64,000 nucleotides of DNA from a virus (lineage: Duplodnaviria; Caudoviricetes). The stretch covers positions 15,414 to 79,413 of IMG/VR virus record IMGVR_UViG_3300028591_000169; one strand, written 5' to 3'. Below are positions 12,174-53,587 of the stretch, piece after piece (positions within the stretch are counted from its first letter, which is position 1; each line of letters begins with the position of its first letter). The translations under genes and the position numbers were made by a program. The notes under the pieces were generated by a model. The model saw only the letters and a program-made list of their open reading frames with translations, ran no database searches and was not told where the DNA came from.

Positions 12174-15017
12174 TTAGTTATTTTTCTTCTTGAACGGGAC
12201 TAACGGTCTGAAAGTGAGATCCAACCCTTTATTATATCCCATGAAAGGATCGCTGCTATACTTAGGGACAGAACCAACATTAAATGCAGGAACAGGTTTT
12301 AATGCAGTTGCGGTGGTTACTTTGGCTTCGGTATTTTTTTCTGGAATCGTGGATATCGCCTCCATTCTACCAGTTAATGGATTATAAAATATACCGCCAT
12401 TAACACCCGTTCTATAACCAAGGAATGCCGGATTCGTATTAATCTGGTTCATGGCAAAATTCTCTTGCCCTATTCCAGAAAGAGCCTGTAGACCATTGCT
12501 GATCTGATTACTGATAGAATTATATTTATCTCCCTCTGCTTCATAATTAAGCCTTTGAACCATCAGGTCGTTTTGTGTGTTCCGAACCGCAGCGTCATTA
12601 AGTGCTTGCTTTCTTGCGGCATCAACCGTGTAATCAAACTGAGCCCGTTGCGCTTCCGCCTGATTATTAGCAGCCGTTACAGCATTCCGTCTCTGATTAT
12701 TCGCCTCCCACGCCTGGATGAACCCAGTGCCAAGATTACCAGTAGTATTGTTATCAGCAGCAAGGATTGCAGCAGCAGAAGACGGACCAAGACCAGAATT
12801 ACGCAAAGCACGATTGGTAGCATTGCCCTGTGCGATCTGGGCATTAGCTATCATATTCTGATCAATGGGGTTATATACCTGATTCTGAAGATTAATCCTT
12901 CCTTCAGGCAACTGCGGGTTGATGTGCGGGACCGTATATCTATCGGGCTGCTGAAATACATTGTACAAACCAAGCAGGCCAGAGCCGATAGCCCCGGCAT
13001 AACGAGGCCGGGTAGGAAGAAGATTGTTGGGATCAGAAGTCGACTTGTCATCTTCTGCTGCGGAAGATGTAATATCAGAAATCGGATGAGGAGTTATTTT
13101 TAATCCATCAGGACGAGTATTTATTACCTGATTAGGAAAATTATAGCCAGCAGGACCATCCGCATATACATAAGACGGAGCGAGCACTTCCGAAGAATGG
13201 TTCTCATCATTTATCACAAATGCATTATGAATCCCATCTTGATTGCTTGTCGCAACACCACTGACAGACGGAGATGATGGCGCATCTGCAAAAACATAAG
13301 ATGGTTCCAGGATAGTGTTCGAACGAAGAATACCGGAACCGATAGCGCCATTACCAATAGTAAAAACAGGAGGCACAACATCGGATGTTCCAAGCGTCAT
13401 CGGGAAATTACGAAGAACCCCATAGCTAAAAGGAGATTTATATCCTCCTGGCCAAAAAAGATTTCCGCCATTAGCGAGAATTCTATGTTTTGCATTATCG
13501 TGCTTTTCCTCCTCAACAGCATGCACACCATATCCGATACCGCTACCAACAATAGGCATCTTATACTGCCACTCGCCATGATTCCACCATTTATTCTTGG
13601 CGCTCTTGGCTTTCTCGAGTTCTTTTGCAGCAACTTCTGCCGCTGCTTTAACCTCATCGGTGGCACCCTCTGCCGCAGCCAACGCGGACTTCTCCTTATA
13701 AATCTTCTCAAGTCCGGCTATCTCTTCCTCAAGAGCGGCCCGGTTATACATCGGTCCACCGGTAAATGCACCAATGGTCTTATTAGCTGCCTCAACTTGA
13801 GCACGAGTTGTCTTCGCTGATGCTTTCAGTGCGTCGACATCCGCCCTTGCTGATCTCGCCTCAAGTTCTGCAAGCGTTTGCTGGAGTGCTTTGTTATTAG
13901 GATCTGCGGCAAGATTAGCTCTTGCAATCTTTACTTCATCTGCAATAGCATTCGCGGTATTTCTAGCTGCGCTTGAGGCGGCTTTCGCTTCATCTACGAC
14001 GGCGCGTGCCTCCTGAAGCATTGTCTTTCTACCAGAAGCCTCAACGAGTTTACCGGGTGCATTCTTAATCGCATTACCTATCTTTTTCAAGCCACGCCAT
14101 ACACTTCTTCCAATCGGGCCAGTGACTCTACCAGCCTGTCGCATGAGCGGAGAACCAAATGCCTGAGTCGCATCTTCCGGAATTAAGAAACTGGCAACTT
14201 TCCCAACAGTTGAATTATCCCACCATTCCTGTGCATCATCAATAGCCCGTACAACTTTATTGTCAGAACCAAGAGCCATTTCAAGAAGCGAAGGGACCTC
14301 TGGTGCCACATAATTGTCGCCATAATTCAGGTTGTCAAAAGAAAAAACCTCTCGTCCACCGCCGCCTACAGAAGAACCTTGCGGTTTAACACCCGGATCT
14401 CCGGGGACAACTCGACCTGGAGTGCCATCACCAAATACGCGAAGAAATCCACCATTAGCCATCATTGGCATTCCTTCTGTCGGAATAGATTCAGCAGGCC
14501 CCATCATCTGTTCAGGAGAAGCTTCCATCGGTGCCTGTTCCGGAGCAATCTGTTCCTGTTCTCCCTGAGCAAGCATCGCTTCCAACTGGTCAAGTTCTTC
14601 CGGTGAAAGCTGAGCCAGCTCATCTTCCAAGTCTCTCTGTTCCTTCGCTTGCTTCTGACTTTCCTGAGCATCTGCAAGTCTACCAAGAAGAGCTTCAAGA
14701 CCGTTACGAGAAATCGGATCAAGCGGTCTCTCCTCTGCCTCTGAGAACAAATCATCGGCTATCTTGGAATACAGCTTTCCTGTATACTTCTTCGGAAGAT
14801 TGTTGTCTACAAGAAACTGTTCCTCGGCTTCAATGTTATCGGAGTAAACATAGTCCTTGTACACCGGTTCACCTTCTTCAAGGAGATTCGGATTGCCTTC
14901 AGGGTCAACTCCAATCTGAACGCCACCGTTGGGGTTCTCCTCGTGGGAACCGCCCTCGTTGACTCTCAGATAATCTTTCGGCGCAAAATATCCGCCATGG
15001 GTATCAAACTTCGACAT
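12174..15017 (-). CDS. Virion cargo protein, 947 aa, modular, with repeated xxGG motifs
   Basis: N-terminus (NEGGSHEENPNGGVQIG...NLLEEGE) is typical of crAss cargo proteins. Contains an acidic linker, ANGG motifs at 14448 and 13464, an Ala-rich helix and hydrophobic segments. Confidence 0.7.
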   Translation of the reverse strand: MSKFDTHGGYFAPKDYLRVNEGGSHEENPNGGVQIGVDPEGNPNLLEEGEPVYKDYVYSDNIEAEEQFLVDNNLPKKYTGKLYSKIADDLFSEAEERPLDPISRNGLEALLGRLADAQESQKQAKEQRDLEDELAQLSPEELDQLEAMLAQGEQEQIAPEQAPMEASPEQMMGPAESIPTEGMPMMANGGFLRVFGDGTPGRVVPGDPGVKPQGSSVGGGGREVFSFDNLNYGDNYVAPEVPSLLEMALGSDNKVVRAIDDAQEWWDNSTVGKVASFLIPEDATQAFGSPLMRQAGRVTGPIGRSVWRGLKKIGNAIKNAPGKLVEASGRKTMLQEARAVVDEAKAASSAARNTANAIADEVKIARANLAADPNNKALQQTLAELEARSARADVDALKASAKTTRAQVEAANKTIGAFTGGPMYNRAALEEEIAGLEKIYKEKSALAAAEGATDEVKAAAEVAAKELEKAKSAKNKWWNHGEWQYKMPIVGSGIGYGVHAVEEEKHDNAKHRILANGGNLFWPGGYKSPFSYGVLRNFPMTLGTSDVVPPVFTIGNGAIGSGILRSNTILEPSYVFADAPSSPSVSGVATSNQDGIHNAFVINDENHSSEVLAPSYVYADGPAGYNFPNQVINTRPDGLKITPHPISDITSSAAEDDKSTSDPNNLLPTRPRYAGAIGSGLLGLYNVFQQPDRYTVPHINPQLPEGRINLQNQVYNPIDQNMIANAQIAQGNATNRALRNSGLGPSSAAAILAADNNTTGNLGTGFIQAWEANNQRRNAVTAANNQAEAQRAQFDYTVDAARKQALNDAAVRNTQNDLMVQRLNYEAEGDKYNSISNQISNGLQALSGIGQENFAMNQINTNPAFLGYRTGVNGGIFYNPLTGRMEAISTIPEKNTEAKVTTATALKPVPAFNVGSVPKYSSDPFMGYNKGLDLTFRPLVPFKKKNN

Positions 15018-15020
15018 ATC

Positions 15021-15851
15021 TTATTTAACTTTTACTCGATAAACACATCCACCATTTGTCATTATTCGCTGGACATTGGAAGGTTTCCTTTCTCTCTGAA
15101 CCGCTTTCTGTCCAAGAACCTTGTCAGCATATTCCTTGATGCTCTGCTGTCTTCTGATCGGACCGCCATTGGCAACGGCATTGACCGCATTCTGCCTATG
15201 GATGTTGTCTCCAATCCGCTCGTGAGCTGCTGCAAAGTTCTGCCGTGAAGCGTCAGCAGCAAAGTCGGAATCAATCTGCAATGTCTCCTGCCTTGTCTTT
15301 GCTGCGGAGTTTCCAGTAAGAACTCCGCCAAGACCAGTACCGAGACCGATAACACCTCCAGCCAACGCACCCCAAGGTCCACCAATTTGCAATCCGGTCA
15401 TTGCCCCGGACAGCGTTGAAGTCGCAACAGAACCTACCTGCTGACCAGTAGTCATTCCGCGGATATCCTGATAATTGAACTGCGGATTGAAATTGGTCTG
15501 AGCATAGTCATTCGCAAGCTGATCATAGTTGTTATAATTGATATTACCGGCATTACGGAGATCAGCAATCTGATTCTCCTGCATCGTGGTGTCACGAATC
15601 TGAGCATCTTTGAATGCATTTGACAGAAGAGTTGTTGCGCCAGTAAGACCAGCAACAATGCCACCGGCAACAGCCTGGCCTTGCTGTGCGCGAAGGGCAG
15701 AATCCTCGGCATTATACTGATCTTCACGCCCATACCAAGAATCATTATCATTGGCTGCGTAAGCCTCAGCTAATTGCGCTCGCCTTCTTGCCGCGTCTTG
15801 ATACGACCCGACAAAAGACTGATTGTACATATTATCCCACCAAGTTGCCAT
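15021..15851 (-). CDS. Virion cargo/ejection protein with a glycine-zipper transmembrane hairpin, 276 aa
   Basis: Contains LSGAMTGLQIGGPWGALAGGVIGLGTGLGGVLTG and GGIVAGLTGATTLL. Immediately follows the muzzle gene, the usual position of a membrane-active ejection protein. Confidence 0.65.
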   Translation of the reverse strand: MATWWDNMYNQSFVGSYQDAARRRAQLAEAYAANDNDSWYGREDQYNAEDSALRAQQGQAVAGGIVAGLTGATTLLSNAFKDAQIRDTTMQENQIADLRNAGNINYNNYDQLANDYAQTNFNPQFNYQDIRGMTTGQQVGSVATSTLSGAMTGLQIGGPWGALAGGVIGLGTGLGGVLTGNSAAKTRQETLQIDSDFAADASRQNFAAAHERIGDNIHRQNAVNAVANGGPIRRQQSIKEYADKVLGQKAVQRERKPSNVQRIMTNGGCVYRVKVK

Positions 15852-33958: not shown

Positions 33959-34405
33959 TTATTTAATGATTTTTAGAATAGGCAACCAGTATTTTCTAAA
34001 TATCCATAGAAGGCTTAGAATAAGACCAGCAAGAAGCCACCAGAAAGAGTTAATCTTCATCTTCTGACCGATTGTCAACTCGCGCTCGACCTTCTTTTCT
34101 ATGGTAGTCGTATCATGAACTTCGCGGATGCTTATGCTGTCACGCCAGCGATCACGGAAGACATATCTGTCTTTGTACTTCTCAATATAGACCGTATCGC
34201 CTTTCAACCATTCACGGATGTAAATAGAATCGCGTGTAATCAGCGTATCACGATGATGGACATCTTGATAGACATACTCCACCTTTATCTTTTCTGCGAT
34301 CTCAGGGGAACAACCGGGGAGAGCCTGAAACGAACACAATAAAATAAACACTAATAAAATACTAATGCCTCTCCCCGGCTTCCCTAAGTGCAGGCTATTG
34401 TCCAT
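33959..34405 (-). CDS. Spanin-like lipoprotein (candidate unimolecular spanin), 148 aa
   Basis: Hydrophobic signal with a lipobox-like LPGC, a beta-rich middle (DTLITRDSIYI, DTVYIEKY) and a C-terminal TM (FWWLLAGLILSLLWIF); last gene of the lysis cassette. Confidence 0.6.
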   Translation of the reverse strand: MDNSLHLGKPGRGISILLVFILLCSFQALPGCSPEIAEKIKVEYVYQDVHHRDTLITRDSIYIREWLKGDTVYIEKYKDRYVFRDRWRDSISIREVHDTTTIEKKVERELTIGQKMKINSFWWLLAGLILSLLWIFRKYWLPILKIIK

Positions 34406-34506
34406 CCTTCAAAACCTAAATTGACAGATGCAAATTCGTATGCGGCGGCGTAATCTTCGTATGGCCCGAAGCATCTCTCATCACTTGTAATCACCCAGTA
34501 GTTCAT
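34384..34506 (-). CDS. Small 40-aa ORF (MNYWVITSDERCFGPYEDYAAAYEFASVNLGFEGWTIACT)
   Basis: Hand-translated; its ATG overlaps the HNH stop codon (ATGA). Confidence 0.4.
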   Translation of the reverse strand: MNYWVITSDERCFGPYEDYAAAYEFASVNLGFEGWTIACT

Positions 34507-35051
34507 GCCATCACAGAAGAATAAAACGCAAAACCATATCCGCCAGTAGTCTTCATCTTATTATTACAACAACGAGATATACTTGACGAATTCAACCCAG
34601 TCTTCCTTGCGGCTTCTCTTGCAGAGCCATAAATTTCAACAAGATTGCCTAAAGAGTCATATTGCGCGACAGCCTTCCTACTCGGATAAGTTGCTCTTAA
34701 AGTTTCGACTGAACGAGAATGCGTTGTCCCATAAAGCAGATTATCGCGGACACTACACCACTCAAGATTATCTACGCTATTATTCTTTCTATCGTGATCA
34801 AGATGATTGACCTGAGGAAGATTATCGGTATTATCCAAAAAAGCATCGGCAACCAAACGATGTATATAAAACAATTTTCGTTTCCCCTCTCCATCGCACA
34901 AGGCAATGGAAAGATATCCATGGCCATTATCATTAGGAACGAGATTCCTAATATGATTACCGCCATTGTACCGAAGGCTTCTTATATTACCAAGACTACT
35001 AATCTGGTATTTACCTTCGTATCCAACTATATCTTTCCAAATCTCGCTCAC
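34503..35051 (-). CDS. NUMOD4-HNH-NUMOD1 homing endonuclease, 182 aa
   Basis: EIWKDIVGYEGKYQISSLGNIRS (NUMOD4), IHRLVA...VNHLDHDRKNNSVDNLEW (HNH), C-terminal NUMOD1-like helix; GTG start overlaps the endolysin stop. Confidence 0.9.
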   Translation of the reverse strand: MSEIWKDIVGYEGKYQISSLGNIRSLRYNGGNHIRNLVPNDNGHGYLSIALCDGEGKRKLFYIHRLVADAFLDNTDNLPQVNHLDHDRKNNSVDNLEWCSVRDNLLYGTTHSRSVETLRATYPSRKAVAQYDSLGNLVEIYGSAREAARKTGLNSSSISRCCNNKMKTTGGYGFAFYSSVMA

Positions 35052-35485
35052 CTTACAATAAGATTCTTCGTTTCACATCTCTGGCTTCCTGTAGAAGAAT
35101 ACAATCCGATATGTACCCACTTTGTTCTTCCTTGTGTCTCAAATAGAACCTGATCAAATTTGATTCTGTTTTTAATGAGCCAATCTTTTACAAACTTTCC
35201 GAACTCGTCAATTTTACCATTAGTGGGCTGAATATCGACAGCATATCCAAGACGGTGAGCCGATGTAGAAACGCCTCCGACAGCACGATTCAGGGCATCA
35301 CACCTATACCCAGAAGTAACCTTAAGCGGACTACCCCAGGCAATACGAAGCGGCTCCAATATCTTGCTTGTGAGCTCCGTCAAGTGTTCAACAACGGAGA
35401 AGGACGGAAAATTATCTATCCTTCTACTCGTAGCAACATCGGACGAGCATAGCTCCTTCAGCGAGAAATACTTGAAATCAGCCAT
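35048..35485 (-). CDS. Endolysin, peptidase M15 family (L-Ala-D-Glu peptidase type), 145 aa
   Basis: YFSLKEL, SGYRC..LNRAVGG...SAH..GYAVDI and WVHIG zinc-ligand motifs. Confidence 0.9.
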   Translation of the reverse strand: MADFKYFSLKELCSSDVATSRRIDNFPSFSVVEHLTELTSKILEPLRIAWGSPLKVTSGYRCDALNRAVGGVSTSAHRLGYAVDIQPTNGKIDEFGKFVKDWLIKNRIKFDQVLFETQGRTKWVHIGLYSSTGSQRCETKNLIVR

Positions 35486-35931
35486 TACTCCTCCGCTTTC
35501 GTGAACTGGCCCTTGTCATTGCGGGCCTGATTGGATGCATTGATGCTTCTCCGGCTCGGGACCACATCGGGGCGAATCTCGCGGACTGCATCACGAAGTT
35601 CTTCATTTTCTTTCCGCAACCGGCTGTTCTCATCGCGGAGCTCCGCCACCTCTTTTTTTAACGCTTCGTTTTCATCCTTGACCGCAGAGACATCTTCACG
35701 CAAGTCCTTGATGTCGTCCTTCAGGCTGTTGATGGTAGACTGATAGACTTCATCAATCATCTTGCGGATATTCTCGATCTGGGCATTCTTGGCCTCCTCG
35801 ACGGTCTTGTCGGCTTCAGCCTTACCCTGCTTGACGCGTGACTTCACTGTCAGTATCCTGACGAGCCAGCCACCAGCAATGATGACGGCTATGATGTCAA
35901 CGATAATTCTAAAGATGTCCAACTTTTCCAT
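35485..35931 (-). CDS. Holin/antiholin-like membrane protein with a coiled coil, 148 aa
   Basis: One N-terminal TM followed by a long heptad region; directly upstream of the endolysin. Confidence 0.5.
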   Translation of the reverse strand: MEKLDIFRIIVDIIAVIIAGGWLVRILTVKSRVKQGKAEADKTVEEAKNAQIENIRKMIDEVYQSTINSLKDDIKDLREDVSAVKDENEALKKEVAELRDENSRLRKENEELRDAVREIRPDVVPSRRSINASNQARNDKGQFTKAEE

Positions 35932-35948
35932 ATAGAACAGTTTTAATG

Positions 35949-36365
35949 TTATTCTTCAAGTATCCCGCAGTCAACAAGGATGGCGATCTGCTCGAGGTTG
36001 ATTTCCTCGCCCTGGATAGAAGCGACGAACTTGTCCATTTTCACAGACTTAATTGACACTTCCATTTCAGTCTCATCCATTTTCTCAAGGATAAGATTGG
36101 TTTCATCAACCGCCTTGAGGTAATCGTCATGGCCTTCGATGGGCTGCTTTTTCTTGCGAAGTTCAATTACGGCATTGCGTTCTTCCTTCCAGTCCTCCTG
36201 AAACTTCATGACAAGCTCCTGCTTGTCTGCCTCAACATCCTTGACAATCTTGCGGAGTGCGAGATAGTTCATAAGAATGCCACCCTTGACATCAGAATCG
36301 GGAATCTTGCACAGTTTGATACCAGCAAGAATGTCCACGAGCGCTTTGATTTCGAAATACTTCAT
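35949..36365 (-). CDS. Hypothetical protein, possibly a tail-fibre chaperone, 138 aa
   Basis: Helical ORF downstream of the tail-fibre genes. Confidence 0.4.
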   Translation of the reverse strand: MKYFEIKALVDILAGIKLCKIPDSDVKGGILMNYLALRKIVKDVEADKQELVMKFQEDWKEERNAVIELRKKKQPIEGHDDYLKAVDETNLILEKMDETEMEVSIKSVKMDKFVASIQGEEINLEQIAILVDCGILEE

Positions 36366-36370
36366 ATAAC

Positions 36371-36580
36371 TTACTTTATTCCACCGTTTTCTTTTATGGT
36401 CTTTTCGATAGACTTTGCAGCGCGATAAATGACATAACCGTTAGCCACGAAAAGAAGACCGGCAATGACATCAAGAATGTGTTTTGTTTCAACAGCCCAA
36501 ACTGCGGCACATGTAACGACAGTCATAAGACCATAAATAAACAGAGCTCCGACGAGCAAAAACATTTTAGATGATTTCAT
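36371..36580 (-). CDS. Two-TM small membrane protein (holin candidate), 69 aa
   Basis: Two hydrophobic helices and a charged C-terminus; close to the lysis genes. Confidence 0.5.
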   Translation of the reverse strand: MKSSKMFLLVGALFIYGLMTVVTCAAVWAVETKHILDVIAGLLFVANGYVIYRAAKSIEKTIKENGGIK

Positions 36581-49056: not shown

Positions 49057-49467
49057 TCATCTGCATCCGAGTTCGCAAATCACTTCAGCCAAAGCCTTTG
49101 CGGTGTCTCCGGATATGTATGCTGGTCGCTCTGAGTCAAGCGGGACACCAAGAGATTTTGCGATGGCATCAGCAAGATGCCTTACTTCATGCACGAAAGT
49201 GTTCTGGAACTCGTCACCTGAACTTGTGGGGCCGATAAGGACAACAGCCCTTCTCCTTTCCTGATTGGTATAGGTGAATCCGCGGTTGTACTCGCAGGAA
49301 AGCATCAGATCTTCCGCCTGTTCCATGATACCGTTCGGAGCATAAGCATCATACAAGCAGGCAAGGACGCCTTCAATATCATATCGTTTAGTGCAGAACA
49401 GGAAATCTACCGTCCAGCGACCAATCCCCAAGACACGATGAATCATGGCTAAATCATTTCGTTCCAA
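49057..49467 (-). CDS. Small zincin-like metallopeptidase, up to 136 aa
   Basis: TFVHEVRHL (HExxH) and a downstream E..AY.SG; the true start may be 49446 (MIHRVLG). Confidence 0.6.
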   Translation of the reverse strand: MERNDLAMIHRVLGIGRWTVDFLFCTKRYDIEGVLACLYDAYAPNGIMEQAEDLMLSCEYNRGFTYTNQERRRAVVLIGPTSSGDEFQNTFVHEVRHLADAIAKSLGVPLDSERPAYISGDTAKALAEVICELGCR

Positions 49468-49847
49468 AGAATCGGAACGCCCTTTGCCGAACAGTCGGCG
49501 AAAAAACGTGTAAATGCTATTCCATTATACCCGTCCCTATCATCCAACAAGTCTCTAACATATGCTGCCGCATGAGCCTCATCAATGATAGAACTGCCGA
49601 CGAAATCCGAGATACACATATGATAGACATAAACGACATCATAGCCATAATTGTTTTTAATGTTGATGTTGTATTTCTTAATGATGGCATCAACCTGCTC
49701 TTTTGACTTCATCTTGACTTCGTTGTCGCTCATGTCGCGCATTCCTCCTACCGCCCATTCACACATCTTCCTGGAAAAATGCCAGCCATAATGAGAAAGA
49801 TACGCCTCCATTCCATCGGGAAGTATATCATAATAATCCAATCTCAT
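49449..49847 (-). CDS. Conserved hypothetical cassette protein, 132 aa
   Basis: RLDYYD..P..M.AYLS.YGWHFS...CEWAV and F.RF.ADC..KG.PI.W motifs, recalled from Bacteroidota prophages. Confidence 0.6.
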   Translation of the reverse strand: MRLDYYDILPDGMEAYLSHYGWHFSRKMCEWAVGGMRDMSDNEVKMKSKEQVDAIIKKYNINIKNNYGYDVVYVYHMCISDFVGSSIIDEAHAAAYVRDLLDDRDGYNGIAFTRFFADCSAKGVPILWNEMI

Positions 49848-49862
49848 AGCAAAAACAATTAA

Positions 49863-49882
49863 GGGGCGAGTTTCCCCGCCCC
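49863..49882 (-). terminator. Intergenic hairpin (attenuator or weak terminator) inside the cassette
   Basis: GGGGCG/CGCCCC stem followed by TTAATTGTTTTT. Confidence 0.45.
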
Positions 49883-49888
49883 GGTTGA

Positions 49889-50119
49889 TTAACGCATCCG
49901 GCGCATGCCACGCTCCTGCATCTCGTCCTCATCGCGTTCATCTCGACGATAGGAACCGCGTTCGCCGTATCCGTACTCGTCTTCCATGTCGCCGGTGAGT
50001 TCGCAGATGTATTCGATGGCTTTCTTCGCTGCCTTGACAGATTTCTTGGCTTCCATCAGGGCGTCCTTGTAATCGTGGTAGTCGCTGCCACCACGCTTCA
50101 TGATGTGTACAAGACCCAT
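49889..50119 (-). CDS. Small charged protein with an RG-rich/acidic tail, 76 aa
   Basis: Helical N-half, then GYGERGSYRRDERDEDEMQERGMRRMR. Confidence 0.6.
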   Translation of the reverse strand: MGLVHIMKRGGSDYHDYKDALMEAKKSVKAAKKAIEYICELTGDMEDEYGYGERGSYRRDERDEDEMQERGMRRMR

Positions 50120-50122
50120 AGT

Positions 50123-50614
50123 TTATTCCTCCTTTGTCTTGGTTCCAAGGATGGCAGAGAGCATCCGCTTCATCTCGGACAATTCATCCTTCAAAGCAGC
50201 CAGCTCCTTCGCGCTCTTGACCTCACGTTGTTTATCGGGGTTCAAAGAGATAAGAAGCGCTTCATATTTTTCGAACAGGTCTTTGTTGGTCTCGTAACTA
50301 TCTATGATCCGCTTGCTGTTATCCCGAAGCGTCGTAATCTCATTCACGACAAGTCCCTGGTCTTCACTGATGAATAAGCCCTTGTCCGCAAAATTCGCCG
50401 TAGAAGCGGATGCGGGCAATCCAAGGAAAGGTATCGTATCACTTCCGACGGAAACAGTCAAGTCAGTAACCATACCATTGAACATAGCCTGTGGCTGATT
50501 TGGATTATACTGAGGAAGATGAGTATTGACAGAAACAACTCTGCCCACCTCAACCTTCGGCTCGTTCTTGTGCAGGATGAAGAGCGTTGCTCCCTGCGTC
50601 ATCGCTTGAAACAT
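50123..50614 (-). CDS. Cassette protein with a beta-rich N-terminus and a C-terminal coiled coil, 163 aa
   Basis: Start refined to MFQAMTQGATLFILHK; the longer track ORF reads through the HNH leader. Confidence 0.6.
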   Translation of the reverse strand: MFQAMTQGATLFILHKNEPKVEVGRVVSVNTHLPQYNPNQPQAMFNGMVTDLTVSVGSDTIPFLGLPASASTANFADKGLFISEDQGLVVNEITTLRDNSKRIIDSYETNKDLFEKYEALLISLNPDKQREVKSAKELAALKDELSEMKRMLSAILGTKTKEE

Positions 50615-50635
50615 TATTAATTCGATTTTATTTGT

Positions 50636-50741
50636 TATATTTGTGATAGGGAATAGGTAGGAGTCATGACCTACTGACAAGAGGTTCGTCAACGCCTCTT
50701 TCCCTTTTCTTAATCGTTGACATAATGTAAATGTTGACAAT
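50636..50741 (+). ncRNA. Promoter (TATATTTG) plus structured leader RNA of the HNH gene
   Basis: Outer stem AGGGAA/TTCCCT encloses hairpins GTAGG/CCTAC and AAGAGG/CCTCTT. The second loop (GTCAAC) is complementary to two downstream GTTGAC copies. Confidence 0.55.
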
Positions 50742-51389
50742 ATGACAAAAGAAGAATTTATCCAGAGCATCGCTCTGCCGGGAGAAGAATGGCGAGATGT
50801 GCCGGGATACGAAGGCATCTATGTGTTTTCGTCCGAAGGTCGCGTTGCGTCCATAAGAACGGAAATCTTCTATCAAGGAAGGGAAAAACCGAGAAAGGTT
50901 AAGCCGCTTCTCTTGAAGCCGACAATGAACAAGACAACAAACGGCGGTTATCCAACACTAATTGCATCTATTCACAAGAGAACAAAAGTATTTTTCATTC
51001 ATCGCCTTGTCGCAGAAGCTTTTGTTCCTAATCCGAACGAAAAAGCTTTTAATGAGGTTGACCACATTGACGGAAACACCAAGAATAATCGAGCGTCGAA
51101 TCTCCGTTGGACGAACCGCTCTGGAAATATGCTCAACCCCGTCTCACAAATGAGACAATCGTTAAGCCATAGAGGGAAGTTAATTGAAAGCACATTAAAA
51201 CCAGTCGTTCGGATTTCCTCGGACGGGTCTATAAAAAAGTACAGTCATATTAACGCAGCTACTTCAGAAGGATTCTCAGCACCGATGATATCTATGTGTT
51301 GTTCCGGGAAGAGAAAAACTCATAAAGGATACCGCTGGATGTACCTTTCCGACTACGAATCTCAAGTCAGTATGTCAATGAACTCCTAA
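50742..51389 (+). mobile_element. Free-standing NUMOD4-HNH-NUMOD1 homing endonuclease, 215 aa, inserted antisense in the cassette
   Basis: EEWRDVPGYEGIY, IHRLVAEAFVPNP...VDHIDGNTKNNRASNLRW and a C-terminal NUMOD1. The only convincing plus-strand gene in the window. Confidence 0.9.
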
Positions 51390-51396
51390 TCTACTT

Positions 51397-51738
51397 CTAC
51401 GCCGCCGAGGTGTTCAGCAGCTGAAGAATGTCGGAGAACCGATCATAGTAGAACAGGTAAACACCGACACCGGGAAGATCTGCCACCGTGAGGTTTGCAC
51501 CTCCGGCAACCGTCACGTTGCTGGTGGTTCCGGCCATAGAGAAGCGGATCGGAAGCGTAGCGGTCGTTGCGGAGGGAATTTCTTCTGCGAGATAGACAAG
51601 CAGGAGACCGCGGAAAGGACGGCTGTTCCAGTCCGGATTGAACTTGAAGTCAACCGACGTTTCGGAAACCGTAACGCTCTGCGCCTTGATGGTCGGAATA
51701 CCGCGCTGGTTCACATACTGATAGGGCCAGACTGCCAT
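51397..51738 (-). CDS. Small beta-sandwich-like cassette protein, 113 aa
   Basis: Beta-rich sequence; YVNQRGIPTI, ATLPIRF and GVYLFYYDR motifs. Confidence 0.6.
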   Translation of the reverse strand: MAVWPYQYVNQRGIPTIKAQSVTVSETSVDFKFNPDWNSRPFRGLLLVYLAEEIPSATTATLPIRFSMAGTTSNVTVAGGANLTVADLPGVGVYLFYYDRFSDILQLLNTSAA

Positions 51739-51753
51739 AGCGCGTTCCTCCCT

Positions 51754-52656
51754 TTAACCCCAATACGAACCGCCAGGGACACCGTAGCCGTAGCCATAAC
51801 CAGCGCCGAAACCAGCATAGGGGGTGGCGTTCATCGCAACGACATTCGGGTACTGGACAGGAATGGTGTTGGGCTGCCGGTTCTCGATTTCGATGAGCTT
51901 CGCGTTGATGGGAGCGAGCATAGAGGCGAAAGCCTGGGTCTGCGCTGCGTTGTCAATTTGGGAACGAAGGGTGGAATTGGCGGTAAGGAGGCTGTCAATC
52001 TTCTCCTGCATATCCCGTTCACGGGCATCACAGAACTCCTTGACCATCGTGGTCTTGAGGTCGGCGATTGAGTCGGCTGTGCGCTGACCGCTTCCCGTAA
52101 TGGCACCTGCCAGGGTGTTGGTCTGCTCGATTGTAGCGATGCGGGACTCGTAGCCCTGCTGAGTGGTCAGGAGACGATTTTCGCAGCAGCAGTCACAAAG
52201 TTTCGACATCAGCGTAGCGTTGCCGGACTGGATAGAGTTGATGAGCTGCGGAACGCTCACAGCCTGCTGGAGAGCAAGATTGGAGAGACCGCTCTGGAGA
52301 GCGGCAACGGCTGCACTCACCTGATTGTAATCCTGACCAAGCATGGTAGCAAGGTTCTGGATTGCAGAACGAGAAGCCTCGCCGTTGGAGTTGATCGCGT
52401 TCATCAGGAGTTCGCGACCAGCGTTGTTGTCAATCTGGTTGGATATGAAACCGGCTCCGTTATTACCGCCCCAGCCACCGCCGAAGCCACCAAAACCGCC
52501 CCAACCATTACCGAAGAAGAGACCAAGAAGGAATCCAAGGATGCCGCCTCCCCATCCATTGTTGCCGCCAAATAGACCGCCATTATTCATAGCCATCCAA
52601 GCGGGCACAGTACCCCCATTGTTCTCAGGGGTATAGACTACTGTTTCACTTGCCAT
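51754..52656 (-). CDS. Gly-rich TM/coiled-coil protein with a CDCCCE motif, 300 aa
   Basis: GWGGGILGFLLGLFFGNGWGGFGG, then amphipathic helices, LCDCCCEN, a coiled coil and a GYGYGY tail. Confidence 0.75.
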   Translation of the reverse strand: MASETVVYTPENNGGTVPAWMAMNNGGLFGGNNGWGGGILGFLLGLFFGNGWGGFGGFGGGWGGNNGAGFISNQIDNNAGRELLMNAINSNGEASRSAIQNLATMLGQDYNQVSAAVAALQSGLSNLALQQAVSVPQLINSIQSGNATLMSKLCDCCCENRLLTTQQGYESRIATIEQTNTLAGAITGSGQRTADSIADLKTTMVKEFCDARERDMQEKIDSLLTANSTLRSQIDNAAQTQAFASMLAPINAKLIEIENRQPNTIPVQYPNVVAMNATPYAGFGAGYGYGYGVPGGSYWG

Positions 52657-52695
52657 AATACTTTAGTTTTTTGCAGTTATTTGCTTTAGTTTCTT

Positions 52696-52718
52696 GTTGC
52701 GCAACTACTGCAAAATTA
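52696..52718 (-). promoter_or_regulatory. -7 box TAATTTTG (52711-52718) with the downstream palindrome GTTGCGCAAC (52696-52705)
   Basis: Exact TAnnTTTG match with TTGT about 20 nt upstream, and a perfect 10-bp palindrome near the predicted +1. Confidence 0.55.
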
Positions 52719-52810: not shown

Positions 52811-53107
52811 TCACTTTATTCCATTTTTCTTAAGTTTCCGTATTTCGCGTTCGGACCACTTCAGCTCCTTGCTTCCTGCTTCCGGTTTACCTCTCGGAAT
52901 CTTGCCTTCGCGAACATATCTGTCGAATGTTGCACGGCTCATATTCAAGAACGTGTATGCTTGATACTTATTCCACTTGTTATCCTTCCTTGTATATCTT
53001 TGGAGGCATTTGATAATTTTGATTTGCTCCTCTTCACTGGCGTTGCTATTGTCGGCATCAATGTCGTCAACGATTCCAAGAAGAAGCTTCTTTATTGTTT
53101 GCAGCAT
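52811..53107 (-). CDS. Excisionase/MerR-like HTH DNA-binding protein, 98 aa
   Basis: YQAYTFLNMSRATFDRYVREGKIPRG. Confidence 0.7.
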   Translation of the reverse strand: MLQTIKKLLLGIVDDIDADNSNASEEEQIKIIKCLQRYTRKDNKWNKYQAYTFLNMSRATFDRYVREGKIPRGKPEAGSKELKWSEREIRKLKKNGIK

Positions 53108-53496
53108 TTCTCTTTTCGATAGAAATAAAGGACGAGAAACAAGAATAGACCAATCAAAAAGATATGGACCATAAACAAGGTTGTATTCTCTATCGGCAAT
53201 CCAAAATAATAGTCAGCGTACGTGATAAGATTATTCGCTACCACATAATGAAGGAACATCCGATGATATTCGCAAAAGCGAAATACATATGATGCAAGGT
53301 ACAAGAATAACAACGGTAACAATGACACTCCGCCAATGAATGAGAAGACAGAACTATCAATGCCAAAGAAATCCAGAAACATACCAATCATTGCCGATAG
53401 CGCTAAAAGCATAGGAATCACTTTCAGCACTATAAGCAACAATTTATACAGATTTCTTTCTGGAAACCTTTCCACCTTTCTCATATCTTGAACCAC
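53092..53496 (-). CDS. Polytopic membrane protein (about 4 TM), up to 134 aa
   Basis: Four hydrophobic stretches; its 3' end overlaps the HTH start. Confidence 0.7.
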   Translation of the reverse strand: MVQDMRKVERFPERNLYKLLLIVLKVIPMLLALSAMIGMFLDFFGIDSSVFSFIGGVSLLPLLFLYLASYVFRFCEYHRMFLHYVVANNLITYADYYFGLPIENTTLFMVHIFLIGLFLFLVLYFYRKEKCCKQ

Positions 53497-53587
53497 TTGC
53501 CTTGTATCCTGCCCTTGGAGAAGAAGGTTGTGGTCTTCCTTTCAAAATCTTGTTAAGCAATTGCTTTGCTTTATTCTTTTCTGACAT
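53444..53587 (-). CDS. Small basic peptide, 47 aa (MSEKNKAKQLLNKILKGRPQPSSPRAGYKASGSRYEKGGKVSRKKSV)
   Basis: Hand-translated, with an A-rich leader; contains a YEKGGK di-Gly motif. Confidence 0.5.
   Translation of the reverse strand: MSEKNKAKQLLNKILKGRPQPSSPRAGYKASGSRYEKGGKVSRKKSV

Follow-up and report, generated by a model that had tools for sequence, protein, structure and literature searches.

Layout of the cassette

The window analyzed here is a 64,000-nt stretch of a Caudoviricetes virus (positions 15,414 to 79,413 of IMG/VR record IMGVR_UViG_3300028591_000169), and the element under study is a cassette of six intact minus-strand open reading frames (ORFs) between positions 49,057 and 52,718. 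The phage itself is Steigviridae-like, its terminase being 58% identical to that of crAss001. An earlier interpretation, made from the letters alone and called the sequence-only reading below, had described this region as a self-contained six-gene operon headed by a Gly-rich membrane/coiled-coil protein and ending in a zincin. All six ORFs were confirmed at this position; they encode proteins of 300, 113, 163, 76, 132 and 129/136 amino acids (aa).

52656-51754, minus strand: gene 1 (A300), 300 aa; phrog_16490 (4.5e-35)
51738-51397, minus strand: gene 2 (B113), 113 aa; phrog_31654; the most divergent of the six
50742-51389, plus strand: HNH/NUMOD4 homing endonuclease gene between genes 2 and 3, outside the cassette proper
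50614-50123, minus strand: gene 3 (C163), 163 aa; phrog_28898 (6.9e-23)
50119-49889, minus strand: gene 4 (D76), 76 aa; helical start, Arg/Asp/Glu/Tyr-rich tail
49847-49449, minus strand: gene 5 (E132), 132 aa; Pfam DUF7841; phrog_38431 (1.6e-43)
49446-49057, minus strand: gene 6 (F129), HEVRH protein, 129 aa from the ATG at 49446 (136 aa from the upstream TTG at 49467)

Genes 2 and 3, which are separated by tens of nucleotides in the relatives, are set apart here by an insert of 782 nt carrying the endonuclease gene on the plus strand. The encoded protein matches HNH_3 (1.3e-10; 41.1 bits, cut-off 24.8), NUMOD4 (2.5e-10; 40.9 bits, cut-off 23.4) and phrog_59 (8e-38). An HNH gene at this position was seen in none of the other loci examined, the insertion being confined to the window's phage. 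The description as self-contained thus holds for a recurring unit with its own signals and has to be qualified by the HNH/NUMOD4 gene that splits genes 2 and 3. A 231-aa ORF starting at 50818 was rejected as gene 3, being an artefact of the antisense HNH gene; the 163-aa form was adopted because the homologues comprise 163 aa and the match to PHROG 28898 starts at residue 69. Since most homologues of gene 6 comprise 129 aa, translation more likely begins at the ATG at 49446.

Conservation of the gene string

For the gene-neighborhood analysis 50 loci, retrieved with single proteins as queries, were compared by tblastn and profile searches. The six genes recur in the same order, 1-2-3-4-5-6, in about 25 of the 50 loci, and the cassette, conserved in order, is a real unit. 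Within the Crassvirales it was found in the Suoliviridae (cr272_1, and cr4_1 with genes 1 and 2 plus an unplaced 188-aa third gene), the Steigviridae (cr116_1, without gene 5) and the Intestiviridae (cr271_1). Some 20 contigs from IMG/VR and several from Logan add further loci. The full gene string is also present in C3_41T2LP, a cultured phage of Bacteroides uniformis, and a reduced core of genes 1, 3 and 5 (profile E-values of 5e-5 and 4e-9) in the Parabacteroides siphovirus PD691P6. Relatives of gene 1 alone occur in two viruses assigned to Methanomassiliicoccales, L006 (vir215) and L007 (vir335). In both records the relative adjoins a tail protein, and one of the two viruses has a reverse transcriptase and an integrase nearby. 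Clustering of the gene 1 family at 90% identity yields more than 7,100 clusters, of which 520 remain at 50% identity.

The cassette is missing from crAss001, and no match to it was obtained in the prototype crAssphage. As had been stated before, it lies outside the core crAss virion set, being absent from crAss001 and no part of the known virion set. A DNA-level search of a phage collection with the cassette returned no match either. One scan of cellular genome contigs gave a single match, contig CAVGUA010000109.1 (locus L050) of a Parabacteroides goldsteinii metagenome-assembled genome (MAG), and no match in Bacillota. This 129-kb contig carries the cassette with in-frame stops together with capsid-like and endolysin genes and is likely a recoded crAss-like phage rather than a chromosome. 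The sequence-only reading had stated that similar gene strings recur in gut Bacteroidota and Bacillota prophages. Recurrence in gut Bacteroidales phages is borne out; recurrence in Bacillota prophages is not supported, the sole match of the scan being the P. goldsteinii MAG. The absence of an assigned role was corroborated, since no characterized function was found in Pfam, PHROGs, NCBIfam, PADLOC, the PDB or the searchable literature. The literature search returned nothing on DUF7841 or on MB20-41, the host strain of C3_41T2LP, and the cassette genes are not discussed in the crAss genome papers examined.

Regulatory signals

The promoter, internal hairpin and terminator of the sequence-only reading were all located, together with a palindrome next to the promoter-like box:

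52792-52761, minus strand: terminator-like hairpin (14 pairs, then a T run), closing the upstream helix-turn-helix (HTH) unit
52718-52711, minus strand: TAATTTTG, Bacteroides-type -7 promoter box, 55 nt 5' of the gene 1 ATG
52705-52696: perfect palindrome GTTGCGCAAC, candidate operator, just 3' of the promoter box
49882-49863, minus strand: GC-rich hairpin in the gap between genes 4 and 5
49054-49033, minus strand: intrinsic-terminator-like hairpin at the end of the unit, 9 pairs (5 GC), then TTTTT
48965-48958: TATCTTTG box for the next gene, 3' of the cassette terminator

With 32 copies observed vs 32.7 expected, the motif TAnnTTTG is not enriched across the window. It is its position that argues for a promoter, since 12 of the 30 related loci listed have such a box 52-64 nt 5' of the gene 1 ATG. 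The palindrome GTTGCGCAAC has no further exact copy within the window. Related loci exhibit a differing short palindrome at the same position a few bases 3' of the box, for example GTTGTACAAC, GTTGCAAC or GTAAGCTTAC. Of 16 loci, 15 have kept the hairpin between genes 4 and 5 in this position, though its sequence varies; it is likely a partial terminator or a transcript-stabilizing hairpin.

Upstream of the cassette (52811-53587, minus strand) three genes encode a peptide of 47 aa, a four-segment membrane protein of 134 aa and an HTH protein of 98 aa. This trio accompanies the cassette in about 12 loci and is located between the endolysin gene and gene 1 in relatives. A function as holin or antiholin is conceivable for the 134-aa protein, and the 98-aa HTH protein could be the regulator of the cassette promoter.

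Late translation in recoded relatives

The relatives cr272_1 and cr4_1 use TAG as a sense codon, and TAG-recoded relatives read it as glutamine. In cr272_1 four of the six cassette genes (1, 3, 5 and gp47 at the sixth position) contain in-frame TAG, as do the neighboring endolysin gene and the terminase and portal genes; among the 17 replication-arm genes gp21 to gp04 there is none. Overall, 118 TAG were counted in 21,886 plus-strand codons vs 4 in 6,345 minus-strand codons. In crAss-like phages recoding has been reported to be restricted to late genes (PMC7886860; bioRxiv 10.1101/2021.08.26.457843). Since the cassette carries in-frame TAG in the same way as structural and lysis genes, we conclude that it is translated late in the recoded relatives. 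By analogy with these relatives, late expression is presumed also for the window's cassette, which is written in the standard code.

The onset of recoding in cr272_1 (L045/L046) is abrupt, in-frame TAG beginning at gp56 just 3' of a tRNA-Gln gene (12606-12679). The capsid gene of this phage and the five genes 3' of it are free of in-frame TAG.

Neighborhood of lysis genes

In many loci the distance between gene 1 and lysis genes is no more than 3.5 kb, and at least five different genome arrangements are represented. The lysis genes lie upstream in L003, L004, L012, L014, L015, L018, L019, L023, L027, L028/31/33, L034 and L050. Genes for an Rz-like protein, an endolysin and a lipobox protein are positioned directly upstream in L012, L018, L019, L027, L028/31/33, L034, L050, cr116_1 and cr4_1. 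In cr272_1 the endolysin gene follows directly downstream of the cassette, and in PD691P6 and BF503P2 a holin, an endolysin and a spanin-like gene do so. The roles that had been proposed from the sequence alone, i.e. superinfection exclusion, anti-defence or host-envelope manipulation, fare differently with respect to these data. Host-envelope manipulation fits best because the cassette usually adjoins holin, endolysin and spanin genes; an early anti-defence function fits poorly with in-frame TAG as in late genes.

The window's phage possesses a lysis set of its own, 14 kb from the cassette:

33959-36580, minus strand, beside the capsid gene: 69-aa two-segment holin-like protein; 138-aa protein; 148-aa Rz-like protein (N-terminal anchor, coiled coil); 145-aa M15 endolysin; 148-aa u-spanin-like protein (LPGC lipobox and C-terminal anchor)

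As the full set is located elsewhere and the defining features are absent from the six genes, we rejected the cassette as the phage's lysis cassette. It is linked to the lysis genes by neighborhood and is not the lysis machinery itself.

The gene 1 protein

Both the Gly-rich N-terminus and the CDCCCE motif described for the 300-aa protein are present. Its N-terminal 70 residues are of low complexity and rich in Gly, Asn and aromatic residues (residues 20-75 of the family: 27% Gly, 13% Asn, 9% Phe). The strict hydrophobic run comprises only about 10 residues and is not flanked by basic residues. The best 19-residue hydropathy amounts to 1.23 (median of 67 relatives: 1.44) vs 2.2-2.7 for the phage's own real membrane proteins. 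Consequently, the protein is not a canonical membrane anchor, and the stable transmembrane hairpin of the sequence-only reading is not supported, the hydrophobic segment being too weak and too short for a stable anchor. A C-terminal membrane anchor was not detected by hydropathy either.

Residues 70-165 form the conserved part, consisting of two similar helical repeats and an invariant CCC. AlphaFold2 predicts a single helix of about 114 residues (147-260) with predicted local distance difference test (pLDDT) values up to 96 between disordered ends (mean pLDDT 69); its periodicity is 3.6-3.67, not 3.5. The tail is rich in Gly and Tyr (GYGYGY...SYWG; last 35 residues of the family: 18% Gly, 9% Tyr), and family members end with an aromatic residue followed by one more residue. 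The median number of Cys per family protein is 8. In profile searches against the PDB the family gave marginal matches to coronavirus S2 HR1 (E 0.0015) and to influenza HA2 residues 10-91 (E 0.006-0.04). These probably reflect composition, and the depositors' labels "spike" and "fiber" probably stem from them. Foldseek and wide VIA fold searches with the model returned generic long helices and no specific solved fold. Longer, fused forms of the protein were not found, which is weak evidence.

A holin was rejected as identity of the gene 1 protein on account of the missing true membrane segment and of the missing holin family match; Pfam and PHROGs gave no match to a holin family for any cassette protein. 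A spanin was rejected likewise, given the hydropathy of 1.23 vs 2.2-2.4 for the phage's Rz-like and lipobox proteins and the lack of a lipobox in all six proteins.

With respect to these sequence properties we also considered an intracellular scaffold, filament or condensate in which the sticky ends of the gene 1 protein and the Arg-rich tail of the gene 4 protein would gather around a helical rod and organize late assembly. The Gly/Asn/Phe-rich N-terminal region and the Gly/Tyr-rich end of the gene 1 family, the gene 4 tail, which is rich in Arg/Asp/Glu/Tyr in all relatives, and the long-helix model without a globular partner fold agree with such a structure, and eight Cys per protein would permit cross-linking. 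However, composition is the sole basis of this proposal, which leaves both the adjacency to lysis genes and the shuffling of the gene 1 rear half (see below) unexplained and which we judge very unlikely.

The partner proteins

Neither a membrane segment nor a lipobox was found in the products of genes 2 to 6. In searches of the six proteins against Pfam, NCBIfam and PADLOC, DUF7841 for gene 5 was the sole match (96.8 bits, cut-off 25.2; E 1.2e-27; profile positions 3-113 of 114); PADLOC contained no family for any of them at E <= 0.1. Genes 2, 3 and 4 gave no match to a known family. Profile searches of the PDB with genes 2, 3 and 6 gave only noise, and in the ESM Atlas genes 2 and 3 matched only unnamed viral clusters, for which it contained no model. 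The gene 3 protein comprises an N-terminal domain of about 100 residues followed by C-terminal helices around a conserved LNPE motif. In the distantly related locus L044 the gene 3' of the gene 1 relative (1329-1739) encodes a BclA_C/TNF-like domain (Pfam 5e-7); with 14% identity the protein has no recognizable similarity to the 113-aa protein of the window.

Gene 6 had been read as a small HExxH zincin, and its conserved residues and their placement in the model agree with a zincin or gluzincin metallopeptidase. H86, E87, H90 and E106 are invariant in 30 sequences, and in the model (pLDDT 94) they are placed on the predicted helices 77-99 and 106-118, i.e. HExxH on one helix with a conserved downstream Glu as the presumptive third ligand. 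A clear match to a solved structure was not obtained: its Foldseek search of the PDB returned nothing below E 0.04; the wide VIA search gave a best Z of 5.3 (unrelated chains), 4.0 for anthrax lethal factor and 3.9 for oligopeptidase. In BFVD the model matched a viral protein annotated as "PolyVal Metallopeptidase superfamily domain" (TM 0.92, root-mean-square deviation 1.5 Å, E 1.8e-11). The Pfam family MPTase-PolyVal (PF18818) matched nowhere in the complete virus record at E <= 10, and the score against DUF6782 (14.1 bits) was below the cut-off of 27. Gp4 of crAss001 (DUF4157) was rejected as a homologue of gene 6, as tblastn gave no match. PolyVal-type and other small phage zincins (PF18818, DUF6782) share HExxH and a downstream Glu on helices with gene 6, which differs from them by standing alone instead of being part of a polyvalent protein.

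Mosaicism within the cassette

Comparison of the window with L035 (IMGVR_UViG_3300028888_000006) unveiled a swapped tract inside the cassette. The flanks are nearly identical, with 99% for the HTH protein, 95% for gene 6, 94% for the terminase and 100% for three genes downstream, whereas gene 1 is 52%, gene 2 43% and gene 3 51% identical. DNA similarity ends around codon 150 of gene 1 and returns near the end of gene 3. The replaced tract (7998-9831 in L035, 50176-52207 in the window) thus takes in gene 2 together with the rear half of gene 1 and the greater part of gene 3, and the gene 1 rear half is only 23% identical between these phages with 95-100% identical flanks. The large fibre gene of L035 has been replaced as well (28% identity to that of the window). 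Over 18 loci the gene 1 rear half showed independent assortment with respect to the front half (rho 0.16) and to every partner (rho 0.10-0.23), and genes 3 and 6 track each other (rho 0.85); the pairs are not phylogenetically independent, and these values are descriptive only. Strict co-variation of the gene 1 rear half with gene 2 was rejected (rho only 0.18).

Such a pattern brings into play a virion appendage or DNA-delivery part. The gene 1 protein would then be a fibre, whisker or pilot tube with a swappable distal half, the gene 2 protein a distal head or adhesin, and the remaining proteins chaperones and a maturation protease. Besides the independent assortment and low identity of the rear half and the co-replaced fibre gene, late expression is consistent with this assignment, as is the position of the cassette after large tail-fibre genes in the window, cr272_1, L014, L035 and L040. 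Furthermore, gene 1 relatives stand beside a tail protein in the archaeal-virus records, the second gene of L044 encodes a BclA_C/TNF-like domain, a kind found at fibre tips, and depositors labeled family members as "viral fiber" or "spike". The H pilot protein of phiX174 resembles the gene 1 protein in length, Gly-rich hydrophobic N-terminus, long Q/N-rich helix and aromatic C-terminus. It was among the long-helix fold matches, with a Z of 7.3 in the range of any long helix and with no sequence similarity; moreover, H is an essential virion protein and the cassette is accessory.

Against an appendage stand the promoter, operator-like palindrome and terminators, which separate the cassette from the structural operon, its absence from crAss001, whose virion is known, and from prototype crAssphage, and its presence in a siphovirus with a tape-measure protein, which needs no pilot. 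In addition, no similarity to structural PHROGs was found, and a low-complexity hydrophobic N-terminus would be unusual in a virion attachment domain. On balance, we regard a virion appendage as doubtful, though a serious candidate.

The same tracts would suit a moron-like conflict unit, serving superinfection exclusion, anti-phage defence or counter-defence, with the rear half of the gene 1 protein as the arms-race surface. The recombination tracts start inside gene 1, the unit is self-contained with its own promoter, palindrome and terminators, and its distribution within the Crassvirales is patchy. Likewise, a gene 1 relative occurs in an integrase-carrying temperate virus, and the fold match of gene 6 bears a label used for domains from polyvalent proteins with a role in conflict. 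Late translation in the recoded relatives, however, fits early protection or counter-defence poorly. None of the six proteins matched a PADLOC family, known exclusion proteins are single small membrane proteins and not strings of six genes, and Pfam MPTase-PolyVal is without a match in this genome. Hence, we consider a conflict unit unlikely.

A possible late accessory unit at the host envelope

We regard as the best fit an accessory unit that is expressed late under its own regulation, is functionally allied to the genes for lysis or release and acts on the envelope, since late expression, lysis neighborhood, separate regulation, a weakly hydrophobic gene 1 protein and soluble partners are all accommodated by it. 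We tentatively assign this reading a probability of about 35%; the parts of it that we infer are that the unit acts on the envelope, that the gene 1 protein is oligomeric, that the HExxH protein does the processing and that the HTH protein is the regulator. The 300-aa protein would be the effector, an oligomeric long-helix protein whose Gly-rich, weakly hydrophobic N-terminal segment and aromatic Gly-rich tail contact the host envelope conditionally. In this respect the N-terminal segment would be closer to a fusion peptide or signal-anchor-release segment than to a fixed anchor. The five soluble partners, which lack signals, may assemble, hold or process the 300-aa protein in the cytoplasm, with the small HExxH protein as the candidate processing enzyme. 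The hairpin between genes 4 and 5 would lower the dose of genes 5 and 6, and the upstream HTH protein may gate the promoter via the palindrome. As the outcome, the unit would control when the envelope is broken down and the phage released, or would bring this process to completion, and it would supplement, not replace, the phage's own holin, endolysin and spanin-like genes.

Several observations weigh against a late envelope accessory. With a complete lysis set of its own the phage does not need the cassette for basic lysis, and crAss001 and prototype crAssphage lyse their hosts without it. No cassette protein resembles a known lysis protein, and the cassette is not located beside lysis genes in the window, L021, L035 and L036. 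Where it is, the adjacency could reflect a shared preference for the boundary between tail-fibre and lysis genes, where accessory genes collect; in addition, many of the loci are related and do not represent independent counts. The gene 1 relatives in Methanomassiliicoccales viruses, finally, argue against a role tied to an outer membrane.

A bolder version of the envelope reading sees in the gene 1 protein a new kind of membrane effector, i.e. a soluble, processed and oligomeric long-helix protein, fusion-peptide-like in front and aromatic in its tail, that late in infection would insert into or bridge the Bacteroidales envelope and so breach or remodel it beside spanins and disruptins; five dedicated cytoplasmic helpers including a private protease would serve to assemble and arm it. 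This we deem improbable.

Known systems resemble the cassette in part. Accessory membrane-associated lysis proteins encoded beside holins are represented by XhlA of the Bacillus subtilis element PBSX, and the large one-segment T4 holin T acts with the regulators RI and RIII. Like these, the cassette lies beside holin and endolysin genes, is late, and combines a helical protein having one hydrophobic segment with small extra partners. In contrast to them, it offers neither a sequence nor a fold match, its segment is too weak and short for a stable anchor, it has five soluble partners including an HExxH protein, and in the window it is not lysis-adjacent. With the spanins (lambda Rz/Rz1, T1 gp11) it shares late expression, lysis adjacency, a long helix with conserved Cys and a fusion-like layout, but a strong N-terminal membrane segment, a lipobox partner and signal peptides are missing, and the phage has its own Rz-like and lipobox-plus-anchor proteins. 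Class I fusion subunits (influenza HA2, coronavirus S2 HR1) exhibit the same succession of a Gly-rich hydrophobic peptide, an in-register N/Q/A-rich helical repeat and a Cys cluster. Yet the gene 1 protein has neither a C-terminal anchor nor a receptor-binding subunit, and the E-values are marginal and the folds generic long helices.

The crAss-like phages are the most abundant human gut viruses, and their exit from the host is poorly understood. What had been a list of hypothetical proteins is now a testable unit that is late, lysis-adjacent, separately regulated and mosaic. Should the cassette govern lysis timing or release, it would matter for carrier states and for how phages persist in the gut; as a virion appendage it would matter for host range.

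Homing endonucleases and a second box in the insert

A second HNH-type homing endonuclease of 182 aa is encoded at 34503-35051 (minus strand) between the endolysin and the lipobox protein. With HNH genes in both the cassette and the lysis set, each of the two late accessory regions has a free-standing endonuclease. Inside the antisense HNH gene of the cassette insert, about 370 nt 5' of gene 3, a TACTTTTG box was found (50983-50990, minus strand). Its occurrence may be due to chance, or it might allow genes 3-6 to be transcribed again despite the insertion.

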